In this document: in pieces, positions 1-7,978 of the stretch
Layout of the letters: every line of letters begins with the position of its first letter
How positions within the stretch are numbered: position 1 is the first letter of the stretch
Origin: a virus
Lineage: Duplodnaviria > Heunggongvirae > Uroviricota > Caudoviricetes
DNA: 34,415 nt
Virus record (IMG/VR): IMGVR_UViG_2740892426_000006
Strand: one strand, 5' to 3'
Program-made: the position numbers and the translations under genes
Notes under the pieces: model-generated
What the model saw: the letters and a program-made list of their open reading frames with translations, nothing else
The model's database searches: none
What the model was told of the DNA's origin: nothing

Positions 1-1164
1 TTACGCCTTCTTTATATCCTCCATAATTCCACAGTGGGACATATTTGGGACATTATCACCAAAAATGTCGTCTATTTTCCTTGCATGCTCTGTCAAATGA
101 TTAGGCGCAAGGTGAGCATACCTACGAATCATTTCTATGGACTCCCATCCGCCCATTTCCTGAAGCACAGATAATGGGACGCCTGACTGGATCAGCCAGC
201 TTGCCCAGGTGTGTCTGAGGTCATGGAAACGGAAATCTTCAATTCCTGCACGACGACAAGCTGATAGCCATGATGTCTTGCTGTCGATGCGCATCTTCCT
301 GACCGCAGGCGTTGATGTTCCATCTGCTCGCTTAGCCGCCTTGGTATGTACAAACACCCATTTGTGATGCTTGCCTATTTGATCACGCAACACTTTACAG
401 GCGGTATCGTTCAGCGCCACACCAATGGCGCGGTTTGATTTGCTCTCTTCTGGATTCACCCAGGCAACTCGTCGCTGCATGTCGATTTGTTGCCATTCCA
501 GATTTATGATGTTCGACTTTCTCAGACCAGTTGCCAGCGCAAACTTGACGACAGATTTCAGTGGTTCGGGGCACTCATCAATAAGGCGTTTTGCTTCCTC
601 CTTTTCCAGCCATCTGACTCGCTTGTTTCTGACCGCTGGTATCTTGATGACAGGCGCTTTTTCCAGCCACTTCCAGTCGCGTTCTGCAGCACGGAGAATG
701 GCCTTTATCATGGCAAGATGCTTTGCCTTTGTCTGAGTTGATACTGGCTTTGGTTCATAAACAGGCGGTTCTTTACCTTTCCTGATGGCGGCCTGAACTT
801 TCTGTTTCCATATTTCTTTCGTCTTTCTGTTATGCATTCTGCTTACAGCAGAGTAAATCTTTGCCTCCGAGATATCTTTAAGCCTTATACCCTCAAAATG
901 TTCAAGCCAGAACTCAATCCGGCTTTTATCTGAATCGAGAGATTTTTTATCAGCTTTTTCCTCAAGCCATCTTAGGCAGGCCTCTTCAAAAGTGACATCA
1001 GGTAAATCCCCTAGCTTTTCTACTCGCCAGAGTTCTGCTTTTCGCTTGTCGTGCAACTCCTGAGCTTGCCGCTTGTCCTTTGTGCCAAGAGATTCCTTAA
1101 TTCGTTTCCCGCCCGGGAGCGAATACGAGGCATACCATATTTCATTTCTGCGGAAGAGTGACAT
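1..1164 (-). CDS. int: tyrosine-type site-specific integrase
   Basis: 387-aa ORF; C-terminal HDLRHTWAS and RRYAHL motifs typical of the tyrosine recombinase catalytic region; stop codon is at the window edge (1-3). Confidence 0.9.
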
Positions 1165-2712: not shown

Positions 2713-3537
2713 TCAGGCGGTGAAAGTACCAATAAAGGTTTCTACTTTGCTGTCTTTGAATTTCTCAACAAGCAGATCACGAAATTCGTTAGCCATTTCT
2801 TCCTGCACCGCTTCCAGCTGAATAATGCGCAGAACCAGTACAGGACGATCGCCAGTGATAATGCTGAGGCGTAATTTAAACGGACGTTCTTTCAGACCTT
2901 CAAACGGAACGCATTTAAATTCAAATGCCACTGGCATAATGTCTTTGGTCTTCGCTTCGACAGACTCCATCAGGGAGCGTTTGCCGCTGAAGTCATTATC
3001 TTCAAAATCAGCGGTCTGGTTTGCTTCAATCGTGATTTTACGGACTGCCGCAGCCGCTTTTGTTGCTTGAATGGCGTCACCATTAGCATCAAAGCCCACA
3101 AGGTAGTCGGCCCAGTCTTCGATCCATTCTGCCAGTGACTTCTGGGAGTTACGCTCGCCGTTAACAGACAACAGAGCAGAGAACGGTGCTGTCTTTTTCA
3201 GTTTGAGAGTGGCAGTGTTATCTGCGTGACCTGGCTCATCAATAGTACCCAGGTTAAGCACACTGACGGCACGCATATTATCGGCATCGATAAAGCAGCG
3301 GGTGCCTTCATCTGCAAGATCTTTAGAATAACGGGTAAAATCATCGATGCTGGCAGTGGAAAGTGCACCACGGAAACGGAAGCGATTTAAATTAAATTTT
3401 TCCAGATCATGAATGCGGAAATTCTCAGGCAATGCCACAGCATCGGCACCAATCTTACTGATAATTTCATTAACACTCTGAGCAGAAATAAGGGCATGGA
3501 TTTGATTAATTGCGGTTGCGTCTAAGTTCTGAGACAT
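2713..3537 (-). CDS. conserved phage protein, 274 aa (YfdQ-like)
   Basis: Long clean ORF with a GAGGA-like Shine-Dalgarno; length and neighbourhood match my recollection of E. coli CPS-53 YfdQ. Confidence 0.55.
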
Positions 3538-3602: not shown

Positions 3603-3965
3603 TTAACGACCTGCTGCGCGGAGTTTTCCGTCAGGTTCACCGGCAAGAGTCAGTAATTGTCCCTGGTCTTCCTGCAGAATAGTCAGGCGACCACCGCGAT
3701 TGACATACATCGGCGTTTCGGTGGTGTCTTCTTCGGAAATTTTCCCGCGGTTAGTTGGGCGAACATATGAGAGTTTGTGTTTGATTTTCACACGGTTCTC
3801 ATCAAACGGTTCGATTTCCAGATTGAGTGAGACCTTCCCTTTGGTTTTCGTGTTCATCACACCGGAAGCGACCTCACTGAGAACTGCGCCGATTTTGGTT
3901 TCAAATACGCCGCCGTCCAGCTCCCCGATAAATGCCTGCACATCAGTACTGCGTTCGCTAGCCAT
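3603..3965 (-). CDS. hypothetical early-left protein, 120 aa (YfdP-sized)
   Basis: Start set at the ATG (3963-3965) preceded by GAGGAG. The track ORF extends upstream into low-complexity sequence that I treat as non-coding. Confidence 0.5.
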   Translation of the reverse strand: MASERSTDVQAFIGELDGGVFETKIGAVLSEVASGVMNTKTKGKVSLNLEIEPFDENRVKIKHKLSYVRPTNRGKISEEDTTETPMYVNRGGRLTILQEDQGQLLTLAGEPDGKLRAAGR

Positions 3966-4435
3966 TTTGCTGCTCCTCATCATATCGACCCTGCAAGGTC
4001 GGTTGGTTTCTCCACAAAACAGAGAAGAACACCTGCGGTGGCAGCCGCCCGGATGGATTGGGTTATGAGCCCGTCGTCCGGTGATGCTCTTCTCTGTTTT
4101 GCAAAAAAGGACGGTACCAGCCGGAAGCAAGGGTACAAACTGGTACCGCCAGGACTACACACAGCATAAAGTTGTGGTGCCGGGTGCCTCCCGGTGCCTG
4201 GCGAAGGTTGCACACCAGGCGGGTGGGTATCCACAGAAGGTCGACTGTCAGCCTCAACCTTAACCCGCGTGCGCTGAGCCGCATTCACCACAACGCTAAG
4301 GATTCTCTCTGGTTGAAAATACTTAGCTGTTATGTGCCTGCTTTTAGCCACATCAGGCGAGGTGGACCTGGTTATTCCCCAACAACAAGGATTCGGTTAA
4401 TCTGGATATCCCCAACAACAATAAGAGTATTCAAT

Positions 4436-4951
4436 GTGATCGCTGAATTAACGGCAGCAATGACGGCTATTCGTGAAACAGCCCAGATTGCAAAACTAAT
4501 GAACGAGGCAAAAACTCAAGCTGAAGTAAATGCGGCTATTGGTGAGCTGAACTCAAAGCTTGCGTCTATTCAGCGCGAATGCGTGTCTCTCGTTGAACTG
4601 GTGGGCTCTTATCAAGAAATAAATGCTTCTCTCAAAGCTAAAATTGCAGAATTCGAAAACTTTGAGGCTCAGACGGAAGGCTATATCCTTAACCAACTTG
4701 AGTCGGGTACTTTTGTATACTCGAAGGAGGTAATCGTGAACGGTGGCAGCATAACCATGCATCTTTGCCCAAAATGTTTTGGACAAAAGATAGTATCGAT
4801 ACTTCAACCATTCCCGGTTAGCGAAGATGAGCTTTTTCATAAAAGCAGGTGCCTCCACTGTGAAAATAAGTTTCTGATGAATAAAAATCCGGATTACGTA
4901 TCGCCTCCATCCATTGAGGAGTTGTCCAGAAAACTTAACGGCAATCTGTAG
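4436..4951 (+). CDS. coiled-coil protein with C-terminal CxxC-x24-CxxC zinc ribbon, unknown function
   Basis: GTG at 4436 (AAGAG 8 nt upstream) or ATG at 4460. About 80 aa of A/E/K/L-rich predicted coiled coil, then HLCPKCFGQ...RCLHCENKF. Followed by a terminator. The track ORF upstream of 4436 is R-rich low complexity. Confidence 0.5.
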   Translation: MIAELTAAMTAIRETAQIAKLMNEAKTQAEVNAAIGELNSKLASIQRECVSLVELVGSYQEINASLKAKIAEFENFEAQTEGYILNQLESGTFVYSKEVIVNGGSITMHLCPKCFGQKIVSILQPFPVSEDELFHKSRCLHCENKFLMNKNPDYVSPPSIEELSRKLNGNL

Positions 4952-4990
4952 ATTACTACTGTTGTGGATATCCAGATTGTTAAAGAGCTA

Positions 4991-5013
4991 AGCGTCCTGT
5001 AGGGCGCTTTTTT
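4991..5013 (+). terminator. rho-independent terminator after the 4436-4951 ORF
   Basis: Hairpin agcgtcc-tgta-gggcgct followed by a run of six T. Confidence 0.5.
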
Positions 5014-5096
5014 GTTGCTAACGAATCATCCTGGACTTCATATGCCCCAGGCGGCTACTTCGTGGGCGTCCTGCCTGTTCGTTATCTTTGATATAA

Positions 5097-5125
5097 AATC
5101 TAACTTAACTTAGTTATTATGGCAA
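5097..5125 (-). promoter_or_regulatory. candidate leftward promoter (pL-like) with embedded operator-like palindrome
   Basis: On the minus strand: TTGCCA, 17-nt spacer, TAGATT. The spacer contains CTAACTTAACTTAG, which resembles the palindromes in the cI-cro intergenic region. Confidence 0.3.
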
Positions 5126-5178
5126 GAGAAAACACCAAACTTTTCTTAGTTCGGTGCCTTAGTTAGAGAAGAGAGGTC

Positions 5179-5805
5179 TTAGAGTTCGTATTGAACTCCT
5201 TTGACTACACCAATGATAAGGCAATTACCATTGATAGGGATGTTGGGATACCGAGGATTTAATGGCACTAAAAACTTTTGAGGGCCATCGATGACTAATT
5301 TTTTTACTGTAGCTTCGTTTGTTCCATCAAGTCGAGCGATGACTATTTTTCCATGACGAGGTTCTGCATCTGGATCTACAATCACTGTTGCGCCTTCTGG
5401 TATTGTTGGGAGGCCATTAGGGTTAGTCATGGAGTCACCTTTAACCTCTAATGCAAATGAGTTATCACCAATCTTTAATGATGTATCTACCCACTTGTCC
5501 ACTTCACTAAACACTTCTGCTGCCCTGCACTCAGTAAACTGCCCAGCCTGAACCCACGATATTACAGGAACTCTGCGCATGTTTGTGACGAGTTTGCCTT
5601 CAAACTCAGCACCATAAAGAATGTAATCTATTGACGTATTGAAGAACTTCGCTAATTTCGAAAGTGCCTCCCCACCAGGGGTATTGATGTCTTTCTCCCA
5701 GTACCCCACAGCAACGTCGCTTACTCCACAAAATTTACCCAATTCTTTCTGGGACGTTCCGGTAACTCTTCTCAGAGCTTTTATACGCTGACCAACCGTT
5801 TCCAT
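5179..5805 (-). CDS. cI: CI-type prophage repressor (HTH plus LexA-like S24 autopeptidase domain)
   Basis: 208 aa; N-terminal HTH (SQKELGKFCGVSDVAVGYWE); C-terminal S24-like region with GDSM motif and a downstream K; divergent from cro. Confidence 0.85.
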   Translation of the reverse strand: METVGQRIKALRRVTGTSQKELGKFCGVSDVAVGYWEKDINTPGGEALSKLAKFFNTSIDYILYGAEFEGKLVTNMRRVPVISWVQAGQFTECRAAEVFSEVDKWVDTSLKIGDNSFALEVKGDSMTNPNGLPTIPEGATVIVDPDAEPRHGKIVIARLDGTNEATVKKLVIDGPQKFLVPLNPRYPNIPINGNCLIIGVVKGVQYEL

Positions 5806-5825: not shown

Positions 5826-5890
5826 TGCTAAGTAATCTTAGTTTTTATTGACCAAAGATAGATTTGTAATTAGCATCTAATAAAAATTAG
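5826..5890. promoter_or_regulatory. operator/promoter region between cI and cro (oR, pRM, pR)
   Basis: Three palindromes built from TTAG/CTAA half-sites: CTAAGtaatCTTAG (5828-5841), ATTAGcatCTAAT (5869-5881), CTAATaaaaATTAG (5877-5890). Confidence 0.45.
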
Positions 5891-5902: not shown

Positions 5903-6103
5903 ATGACAACTGACGATATCGAAAGCTACTTCGGCAGTATTGAGAAAGTTGCTGCTTTTTTCGGCATAACAACTGAAGCCGTTTATCAGTGGCGAAACCG
6001 TCCGGGCCAGTTAATTCCAAAAGGACGTGCAGCAGAAGCTGCATATAGAACTTGCGGACGGTTGCCATTTAAACCTGAGCTTTATGAAAAATCTAATGGA
6101 TAA
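5903..6103 (+). CDS. cro: Cro-like small HTH regulator
   Basis: 66 aa, GGAGGG Shine-Dalgarno, divergent from cI; the segment FGITTEAVYQWRN resembles a Cro-type HTH. Confidence 0.65.
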   Translation: MTTDDIESYFGSIEKVAAFFGITTEAVYQWRNRPGQLIPKGRAAEAAYRTCGRLPFKPELYEKSNG

Positions 6104-6692
6104 ATCGATTAACAGAAACCACAGAACGATGAGGCTAACCGTGGGTAAGCATCACTGGAAAGTAGAAAAACAGCCTGAGTGGTACGTGAAAGCTGTCAGA
6201 AAAACTATCGCAGCGTTGCCGGGTGGTTACGCTGAAGCAGCTGACTGGCTGGATGTAACAGAAAACGCATTATTTAACCGCCTTCGTGCCGATGGCGATC
6301 AGATTTTCCCGCTGGGATGGGCAATGATTTTGCAACGTGCTGGTGGAACTCACTTCATTGCTGACGCTGTGGCGCAGTCTGCAAATGGCGTCTTTGTGTC
6401 TCTTCCTGACGTCGAGGATGTGGACAACGCCGATATTAACCAGCGCCTGCTGGAAGTCATTGAACAGATTGGCAGTTATTCCAGACAGATTCGTTCGGCA
6501 ATCGAAGACGGTGTGGTGGAACCGCATGAGAAGACAGCAATTAACGACGAGCTGTATCTCTCAATTTCGAAGCTGCAGGAGCATGCAGCACTGGTCTACA
6601 AAATCTTTTGCATTTCAGAAAGTAATGACGCCCGCGAGTGTGCAGCTCCGGGCGCCGTGGCGTGTCGTGACTGTGGAGAAACTAACGCATGA
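6084..6692 (+). CDS. CII-like phage regulatory protein (start uncertain)
   Basis: ORF immediately after and overlapping the cro 3' end. Candidate starts at 6084, 6096, 6129 or GTG 6141. The position is that of lambdoid cII; family assignment is from memory only. Confidence 0.45.
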
Positions 6693-7027
6693 ACAGTTTA
6701 ACAACACACTACCGTCGCTCGCAACTGATTGCGCTTCCTGTACCGGGTGGAAAAGCGAAGGTGGAGTATTGCTATGCAGTAAATGTACCAGGTGGCAGGG
6801 TAATTGTAACCCACAGCTTTGCAGAGTGGGCTGTGGGTGATTTTAACCGGCAAAAGGAGACAGTCCTTTGCGACAAGTTAACCGCTGGTTCAAAGATCAC
6901 TACGGAGTACCCGTCAGAGTCATTCGTTGGGAGCCGGAAACACAACGGGTTATCTACCTCCGCGAAGGCTATGAGCATGAATGCTTCAGTCCGCTCGAAC
7001 AGTTTCGTCGTAAATTCAGGGAAATAG
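6689..7027 (+). CDS. hypothetical protein, 112 aa
   Basis: ATGA start/stop overlap with the preceding gene; ends 10 nt before the O-like start. Overlapping ORFs exist in two other frames, so this call is weak. Confidence 0.3.
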
Positions 7028-7036
7028 AGGTCGGTC

Positions 7037-7978
7037 ATGAGCACTAAATTAACCGGCTATGTATGGGATGGTTGCGCAGCGTCAGGCATGAAATTATCCA
7101 GCGTGGCAATTATGGCACGCCTGGCTGATTTCAGTAATGACGAAGGTGTGTGCTGGCCATCAATTGAAACCATTGCCCGCCAGATTGGCGCGGGGATGAG
7201 TACCGTCAGAACGGCTATCGCACGGCTGGAAGCAGAAGGCTGGTTAACGCGTAAGGCGCGTCGCCAGGGTAACCGCAATGCGTCGAATGTTTATCAGCTT
7301 AACGTTGCGAAGCTTCAGGCTGCGGCTTTTTCTCAACTGTCAGATTCTGACCCGTCAAAATCTGACGCATCAAAATCTGACCCGTCAAAATTTGATGCGT
7401 CGAAATCTGGCAAAAAAGCGGGTTTTCACCCGTCAGAATCTGGCGGGGATCCGTCAGTAAAATCAAAACATGATCCGTCAGATAAAAAAACTTCTCGTCC
7501 GGACGCTTCGCAACCGGACACGCAGAAGGCTGAACAGGATTTTTTAACTCGCCATCCTGATGCGGTTGTATTCAGCCCTAAAAAGCGCCAGTGGGGGACG
7601 CAGGATGATTTGACCTGCGCACAGTGGCTCTGGAAAAAAATCATCGCCCTGTACGAGCATGCCGCCGAATGTGACGGCGAGGTGGTTCGTCCCAAAGAAC
7701 CGAACTGGACAGCCTGGGCAAACGAAATTCGCCTGATGTGTGTGCAGGATGGTCGTACTCATAAACAAATCTGCGAGATGTACAGCCGCGTCAGTCGCGA
7801 TCCGTTCTGGTGCCGTAACGTGCTCAGCCCGTCGAAGCTGCGGGAAAAATGGGATGAGCTTTCCCTGCGCTTATCGCCGTCCGTCAGCACGTACACCGAA
7901 AAACGCGAGGACCCGTACTTCAAAGCCAGTTACGACAACGTGGACTACAGCCAGATCCCGGCAGGATTCAGGGGGTGA
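7037..7978 (+). CDS. replication initiation protein (O-like), N-terminal HTH, internal repeat linker
   Basis: GAGGT Shine-Dalgarno; N-terminal segment CWPSIETIARQIGAGMSTVRTAIARLEAEGWL is HTH-like; a 5-aa repeat linker (SDPSK/SDASK) is encoded by the DNA iterons. Confidence 0.7.
   Translation: MSTKLTGYVWDGCAASGMKLSSVAIMARLADFSNDEGVCWPSIETIARQIGAGMSTVRTAIARLEAEGWLTRKARRQGNRNASNVYQLNVAKLQAAAFSQLSDSDPSKSDASKSDPSKFDASKSGKKAGFHPSESGGDPSVKSKHDPSDKKTSRPDASQPDTQKAEQDFLTRHPDAVVFSPKKRQWGTQDDLTCAQWLWKKIIALYEHAAECDGEVVRPKEPNWTAWANEIRLMCVQDGRTHKQICEMYSRVSRDPFWCRNVLSPSKLREKWDELSLRLSPSVSTYTEKREDPYFKASYDNVDYSQIPAGFRG
7346..7420. repeat. iteron array (five tandem 15-bp units) inside the O-like gene; candidate origin of replication
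   Basis: tctgacccgtcaaaa / tctgacgcatcaaaa / tctgacccgtcaaaa / tttgatgcgtcgaaa / tctggcaaaaaagcg; further ccgtcaga copies and an A-rich tract (gataaaaaaa) extend to about 7490. Confidence 0.5.

Follow-up and report, generated by a model that had tools for sequence, protein, structure and literature searches.

The closest described relative of the gene considered here is Rip1 (ring interacting pore 1), and a 2026 review of the work of Patel et al. (2026, Nature 651:1060) presents it as a defence that consists of one protein, from a P. aeruginosa prophage in which it is encoded between the terminase genes (PMC13434031). [quoted passage not shown] Twelve Rip1 monomers are described as encircling the 11-mer small terminase, the C-terminal half of the protein touching the ring and the N-terminal part being an amphipathic helix; together they make up a pore, which causes liposomes to leak and perforates cells. 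The same review calls Rip1 homologues common across proteobacterial prophages, and a further paper cites Rip1 as a small-terminase sensor (PMC13601566). A cryo-EM structure, PDB 9OOX, contains the Rip1 protein of Escherichia phage HK446 bound to the T6 small terminase.

The second system that is of interest for comparison is the sieB exclusion gene of phages P22 and lambda. The sieB / esc / sas arrangement of P22 was reportedly worked out by Ranade and Poteete in 1993. In P22 the sas RNA blocks the synthesis of SieB, while Esc, a product of an internal start in sieB that inhibits SieB, is still made, and through the sas/Esc pair the phage evades its own exclusion (PMC12197685). Thirdly, STnc100/PasD is a known family of prophage-associated small RNAs.

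The DNA analysed here, called the window throughout, is a stretch of 34,415 nucleotides from a lambdoid (SfV / CPS-53-like) E. coli prophage. The gene under study is a rightward ORF on the plus strand (4436-4951, 171 codons, GTG start at 4436, TAG end at 4951), whose RefSeq entry is the hypothetical protein WP_000559922.1. The features that define its position are as follows:

1-1164, minus strand: integrase
up to 3965, minus strand: yfdR, yfdQ and yfdP, running leftward
4990-5016 (stem 4990-5009), plus strand: intrinsic terminator of the rightward gene, with an 8-bp stem, 5 GC pairs and a T-run
5097-5125, minus strand: candidate pL, TTGCCA-17-TAGATT, with the operator CTAACTTAACTTAG (5100-5113) in its spacer, from a promoter scan and a palindrome count
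5179-5805, minus strand: S24 LexA-like repressor gene (cI)
5903-6103, plus strand: P22-Cro-like gene

Palindromes of the form CTAA-N6-TTAG occur only three times in the 34-kb window (5100-5113, 5828-5841 and 5877-5890; 0.24 expected by chance). Two of them lie between cI and cro, the third lies in the spacer of the leftward promoter, and all three are candidate operators of the S24 repressor that would define OL and OR. Since one operator palindrome is found in the promoter spacer (5125-5097), OL/pL is placed to the right of the ORF and before cI. The pL transcription unit includes the ORF in convergent orientation, so that transcripts running leftward from the candidate pL would be antisense to both the ORF and the sequence ahead of it. 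This is the sieB slot, as in lambda and P22, and not the rexAB slot between cI and OL. The first-pass annotation had located the gene between the leftward early operon and cI; its assignment to a lambdoid accessory position is correct in so far as this is the sieB slot, but OL/pL lies to the right of the ORF. The gene's own terminator, which had been proposed at 4991-5013, was recovered on the plus strand, and no terminator was called on the minus strand at the 4990-5016 site. A scan for sigma-70 promoters gave none on the plus strand upstream of the ORF and, within the 5' part of the ORF (4436-4520), none on the minus strand. Inspection by eye found only a weak -10-like GTTAAT/TAATCT at 4396-4403, in a conserved position. 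Between the ORF terminator and OL/pL lies a stretch (5010-5092) that would make up the first ~80 nt of the minus-strand transcript from the putative pL; loci of Citrobacter, Kosakonia, Symbiopectobacterium and Enterobacter share it (GAATCATCC..GGCTACTTCGTGGGCGTCCTGCCTGTTCG). As no N gene is evident in the window phage, a role as a nut- or put-like antitermination element is conceivable; the minus-strand fold of the pL-leader region 4985-5092 is insignificant (z -1.2).

The ORF is a real gene. The GTG start is right, as the sequences in an alignment of 39 homologues share the beginning MIAEL; GTG is the start codon in 15 of the 19 coding sequences inspected, and in the window it is preceded by an AAGAG Shine-Dalgarno sequence at 4423-4427. 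The dN/dS ratio between the E. coli, O157:H7 and Salmonella alleles is 0.14-0.24, which indicates purifying selection, and over residues 1-80 it is 0.06-0.21. The protein was said to have about 80 aa of predicted coiled coil and then CPKC-24-CLHC, with no transmembrane segment, and the layout of long N-terminal helices, two cysteine pairs and no transmembrane segment holds. The AlphaFold (AF2) model (pLDDT 86.8) has helices at 3-24 and 28-79 and then a small beta / zinc-ribbon domain, the cysteine pairs are C111-P-K-C114 and C139-L-H-C142 with a gap of 24 residues between C114 and C139, and no transmembrane segment is seen at a maximum 19-residue Kyte-Doolittle hydropathy of 0.85. The N-terminal helix is rich in small residues and moderately amphipathic (muH 0.41 for residues 5-22). 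In the alignment of 39 homologues A7, A11, E14, T15, L18, K20, A25 and K26 are invariant or nearly so, and the most variable parts are the C-terminal tail and the loop between the cysteine pairs. Between the window and Salmonella alleles, dS falls from 1.42 in the N-terminal half of the gene to 0.28 in its C-terminal half, and therefore the gene itself is mosaic. Synonymous variability dips to 0.62 bits at codons 61-70 (4616-4645, the KAKIAEFE region), compared to 1.3-1.6 bits around it; this may be an embedded nucleic-acid element or a recombination junction.

A profile built from the 39 homologues matched one solved protein in the PDB, the HK446 Rip1 chain 9oox_L (E 2.8e-20), with profile positions 5-152 aligned to chain residues 15-160 of 164. 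The same relationship is visible in a pairwise BLASTP comparison of the window protein and HK446 Rip1 (27% identity, E 2e-11). A Foldseek search with the AF2 model, a check that the first-pass annotation had suggested, gave only 9oox_M and 9oox_L as significant matches (probability 1.00, TM 0.74, target-normalised) and nothing but Rip1 at E<0.25. With the window protein alone, tblastn finds HkaP of phage HK620 (28% identity, E 3e-13) and proteins of the Pseudomonas phages JBD30, DMS3 and D3112 (E 2e-11). In a joint alignment of four branches, i.e. the window family, HK446 Rip1, HK620 HkaP and the Pseudomonas D3112/JBD30 homologues, the residues Q46, L66, V94, Y95, C111, C114, I122, L123, Q124, P125, C139 and C142 are invariant. 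They include the residues named in the following element:

4766-4861, plus strand: C4 zinc-ribbon, with C111, C114, ILQP 122-125, C139 and C142 invariant across branches

By homology this zinc ribbon would belong to a C-terminal ring-binding domain. The window protein thus shows the Rip1-type features of full-length homology, fold, family-invariant residues and an amphipathic N-terminal helix without a transmembrane segment.

We consider it probable that the product of the ORF is a diverged Rip1-family protein, one of the prophage-borne abortive-infection proteins. Homology, fold, conserved motifs, genomic context and purifying selection are shown, whereas expression in the lysogen, the trigger and pore formation are inferred. 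The proposal that the slot holds exclusion or defence cargo is borne out by the characterised relative Rip1 and by HK446 rip1 and HK620 hkaP, which occupy the same slot. The likeness to HK446 Rip1 extends along the full length of the protein and includes the fold, a similar size (164 vs 171 aa), the invariant CxxC...ILQP...CxxC pattern and the N-terminal helices. Both genes are prophage-borne, run against their neighbours, occupy one and the same convergent position within the pL operon and share a core motif in the leader. On the other hand, the window protein is only 27-29% identical to the characterised proteins and belongs to a separate subfamily (PHROG 1244) that the searches run here found in Enterobacterales only. 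The leaders also diverge in their second half, with CCCCAACAACAA repeats instead of CCCCTACAG, and the window has an extra inverted repeat around the ORF and no N gene between the ORF and pL. HkaP of HK620 is a protein of the same family in the same slot, annotated in its record as 'putative superinfection exclusion protein', but it is of another subfamily than the window protein and was never characterised.

The gene adds a new member to the recently described Rip1 family, one that is diverged and very common in enterobacteria. An exhaustive HMM search returned 2764 cluster representatives at E<=1e-3, and a word-indexed search returned 123 homologues in Enterobacterales that are labelled 'hypothetical'. 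The PHROGs match of the ORF is phrog_1244, function unknown; scans against Pfam, NCBIfam and the 2023 PADLOC models gave just sub-threshold coiled-coil noise, and a literature search on the protein accessions, hkaP and the PHROG identifier found nothing relevant. As the subfamily is invisible to these models, naming it fills an annotation gap that matters for the host range of phages in therapy and for immunity conferred by prophages. The assignment also leads to a concrete hypothesis, namely a defence triggered by small-terminase or portal rings.

By homology to Rip1, the gene would be transcribed in the lysogen rightward against the repressed pL operon, and transcription would stop at its own terminator. 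The conserved GTG start would keep the protein level low, and the protein by itself would be soluble and harmless. A superinfecting phage that reaches late gene expression would build an oligomeric ring, of either small terminase or portal, around which the C-terminal beta / zinc-ribbon domains would bind, the phage ring templating a Rip1 ring. The N-terminal amphipathic helices of that ring would then make a pore in the inner membrane, and cell death or lysis would precede the completion of progeny.

A different mode of action within the Rip1 family is conceivable, although we hold it to be rather unlikely: the protein might bind and sequester a phage ring protein (small terminase or portal) and so block packaging without a lethal pore, or it might sense a different oligomer. 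The identity to characterised members is only 27-29%, and therefore trigger specificity is not transferable. Moreover, the known triggers differ within the family, Pseudomonas phages being sensed by their portal and E. coli phages by their small terminase (PMC13434031), and the C-terminal tail and the loop between the cysteine pairs are the parts that vary most. Against this alternative, the N-terminal helices, which form the pore in Rip1, are as well conserved as the sensor domain, and dN/dS over residues 1-80 is low.

The sequence immediately ahead of the gene is the other part of the locus that needs to be discussed. Its elements are:

4335-4435, plus strand: cassette leader (sieB-leader / sas-type element) of about 100 nt, from an alignment of 19 loci
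4336-4365, either strand: core motif GCCTG..CCAC.TCAGGC...GTGG, near-invariant in all loci
4376-4388 and 4409-4421, plus strand: two direct repeats TCCCCAACAACAA, CA-rich (ARN-like) and each followed by GGA, from a repeat search
lambda 595-685, HK446 3358-3458, SfIV 1505-1605 (extracted loci): the leader in these phages

Across the 19 loci, which come from about 10 genera, conservation begins abruptly at about 4335 and extends to the start codon. The per-site entropy of the leader is 0.15-0.6 bits, as opposed to 1.0-1.7 bits at third and 0.3-1.3 bits at first and second codon positions of the coding sequence; the leader is better conserved than the protein and is the truly linked non-coding part of the locus, travelling with the ORF across genera. 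The core motif contains two overlapping short helices with a pseudoknot-type topology that are able to form on either strand. Covariation is limited to one of them, the CCAC/GTGG helix, where Edwardsiella has the compensatory pair CCGC/GCGG and a single IMG/VR contig has CCTC/GAGG. The leader as a whole is not thermodynamically structured, its folds being less stable than those of shuffled sequences on both strands (z +1.0, +1.4), and the minus-strand RNAalifold prediction is weak (-10.75 kcal/mol) with little covariation.

The leader is homologous to the reverse complement of the published antisense RNA sas of P22 (sequence in PMC13397905, Table 2). The two share the core GTGCCTG(T)CTTTTA.CCAC.TCAGGC..GGTGG and the same two-repeat architecture; analogous repeats, ACCCCTACAG in two copies, are present in the leaders of lambda, P22 and HK446. 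A blastn search with the leader matched lambda at 34394-34464 (76% identity), immediately upstream of sieB, and also P22-like phages. Homologous leaders lie upstream of HK446 rip1, where the core is the same in spite of a protein that is only 27% identical, and of SfIV gp36. In SfIV and ML35 the leader, at 98% identity, precedes an unrelated gene of the ECs1072 family, and it also heads another unrelated protein of 170 aa in UTI89 (WP_000500990). Hence at least 4 unrelated cargo proteins follow this leader: SieB, two Rip1 subfamilies, the ECs1072 family and the UTI89 protein. The leader was found in 1552 E. coli genomes as opposed to 650 for the ORF. The motif GCCTG-N7-10-CCNCNTCAGGC-N3-4-GNGG retrieves it, and a scan of IMG/VR with this motif gave at least 120 loci in which the cargo clusters among the matches listed are ECs1072 (13), the Rip1 family (10) and SieB (9). 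The scan also gave many small (60-110 aa) automatically picked putative cargo ORFs that may be spurious. The leader locus resembles a hotspot at which cargo is swapped behind a fixed head, and the leader would be the short DNA motif that marks this defence hotspot.

The comparison with P22 and lambda sieB can be taken one step further. The slot, the orientation and the leader of about 100 nt are alike, and sieB is a lysogen-expressed abortive exclusion gene, which the window gene may be by analogy. The proteins themselves are different in as much as the window protein is unrelated to SieB and has no membrane-spanning segments and no PF14163 match. A further parallel, which is only possible, concerns a candidate internal start:

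4724-4759, plus strand: candidate internal initiation region, with AAGGAGG at 4724-4730, 5 nt, a GTG at codon 101 (4736-4738) and an ATG at codon 108 (4757-4759)

Codons 101 and 108 of the window family are in-frame, start-capable and conserved, which is reminiscent of SieB/Esc. Codon 101 is GTG in 17/17 cases where it encodes Val, with a further 2 TTG, and codon 108 is ATG or GTG in 23/24 sequences, while other Val columns use mixed codons; the perfect AAGGAGG-5-GTG arrangement at codon 101 is found only in the window, O157 and Salmonella alleles. A start at either codon would give the C-terminal zinc-ribbon domain alone, and a parallel to Esc may exist here. As to control, pL transcription after induction would make an RNA antisense to the leader and start codon, shutting the ORF off and protecting the phage from its own killer. 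This antisense step is possible in view of the homology to P22 and the orientation of the gene. A self-protection circuit is plausible because the leader is homologous, the gene lies convergently under pL and its weak GTG start is conserved, and the shared sieB-type leader suggests how a prophage could avoid death by its own ring sensor. In this respect the leader ties the antisense-control paradigm of 1993 to a defence family of 2026.

We speculate, as a possible but on the whole doubtful extension, that the leader is a portable 'socket' of Enterobacterales lambdoid prophages into which one or another abortive-infection gene can be plugged (SieB, two Rip1 subfamilies, the ECs1072 family and others) and that comes with a P22 sieB-type self-immunity circuit. 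The pL-driven antisense RNA across the leader would silence the full-length killer after induction, and the product of codon 101/108 would be a ring-binding domain that acts as an Esc-like dominant-negative antidote. If this is true, Rip1-family genes would be regulated killer/antidote pairs within one ORF, and the leader motif would be a beacon for finding new defence genes.

The ORF of the window is also flanked by an inverted repeat, the arms of which are a 26-nt pair with 85% complementarity:

4399-4424, plus strand: arm in the 5'-UTR (AATCTGGATATCC)
4953-4978, plus strand: arm in the 3'-UTR, after the stop codon (GGATATCCAGATT)

The arms can form a duplex of -38 kcal/mol (z -4.4 against shuffles), each contains the near-palindrome TGGATATCC, and a pairing potential at z <= -2 is found in 13/18 Rip1-family cassettes. 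Pairing is absent in the SfIV cassette with the same leader, and other cargo behind the leader lacks the 3' arm. The repeat may serve for 5'/3' UTR pairing, as an RNase III site (on sense/antisense RNA) or as a protein site, or it may be a recombination scar. One could argue from these flanking repeats that the zinc ribbon binds TGGATATCC or RNA and that the protein is a nucleic-acid-binding regulator that controls prophage expression and has no role in defence. We find this highly improbable, since the full-length homology and the fold match point to a protein solved as a ring around the small terminase, no DNA-binding family was matched, and the 3' arm is missing behind the same leader when the cargo is different. 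In addition, the Pseudomonas homologues lie in a different context without flanking repeats.

The resemblance to DksA/TraR-type factors binding the secondary channel of RNA polymerase, which had been raised from the coiled-coil and zinc-finger layout, is effectively refuted and retains hardly any probability, as there is no match to PF01258 or any other zinc-finger Pfam family at E<=1 and no DksA-like fold, the Foldseek matches at E<0.25 being confined to Rip1. SieB was likewise rejected as the identity of the protein: PF14163 gives no match at E<=1, whereas lambda SieB scores 9.9e-30.

The block farther upstream (3966-4330) is best described as a minus-strand sRNA gene in its own right, related to STnc100/PasD. 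Its minus-strand 4101-4324 segment matches the full-length STnc100 model (RF02076) at E 1.5e-6 and 40.3 bits, which is under the gathering score of 47, and the match includes the terminal terminator hairpin and T-run at about 4101-4150. It resembles STnc100/PasD in the whole-model match and the association with prophages, with the reservation that the score is under the threshold and the strand is opposite to that of the ORF. A long hairpin (4015-4038 / 4078-4101) lies beside the match. The block is situated within the yfdP leader and is covered, in the PGAP annotation, by a pseudogene labelled 'frameshifted hypothetical protein'. The whole region 3966-4435 had been proposed as the RNA part of a two-part module with the protein. 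This survives in a narrower form, for the proximal part only, since 4335-4435 travels with the gene and is homologous to the P22 sieB leader / sas, whereas the distal block is a neighbour of the ORF that is inherited independently and is not a partner. The flank with the block (window 3900-5200) matches 3126/5426 E. coli genomes vs 650 for the ORF, with a match in K-12 under ymfH. SfV has the STnc100-like block without the ORF, and O157:H7 has the cassette without the block, the homology there starting at about 4335.

The ORF is present in 650 of the 5426 complete E. coli genomes (about 12%) as two main alleles with about 100% and about 94.6% nucleotide identity, respectively. The ~94.6% allele occurs in 310 genomes, mostly O157:H7 strains among the rows sampled. 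As for conservation and synteny across immunity regions, which had been suggested as a check, the gene is kept under purifying selection beside the immunity region in six immunity backgrounds. Its orientation, which would suit expression from the repressed prophage, is opposite to that of the neighbours in E. coli, O157:H7, Salmonella, Citrobacter, Klebsiella, Edwardsiella, HK446, HK620, D3112 and JBD30. The general rule is that the gene always lies on the strand opposite to its neighbours, beside the immunity region or the terminase genes. The individual contexts are:

O157:H7 copy: next to a RacR-type immunity region, where rac carries sieB
Citrobacter and Klebsiella copies: placed as in the window, with different repressors
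Salmonella copy: within the rightward operon, just beyond cro and likewise opposite in strand
Edwardsiella copy: downstream of N, together with two other rightward genes
HK446 rip1 and HK620 hkaP: rightward genes in the pL operon
Pseudomonas phage homologues: opposite strand, adjoining large-terminase-like/portal genes (D3112 orf26, orf27)

The Pseudomonas placement agrees with the position 'between the terminase genes' given in PMC13434031. In the extracted Edwardsiella locus the two rightward genes lie at 5962-7279, between the Rip1-family gene and N, and encode proteins of 228 and 175 aa with no Pfam match; they are candidates for further lysogen-expressed cargo. Finally, the extracted locus of phage SfV contains, at 5553-5741 and downstream of cro/orf36, matches to the Rfam families isrK and C4 antisense RNA above the gathering score.
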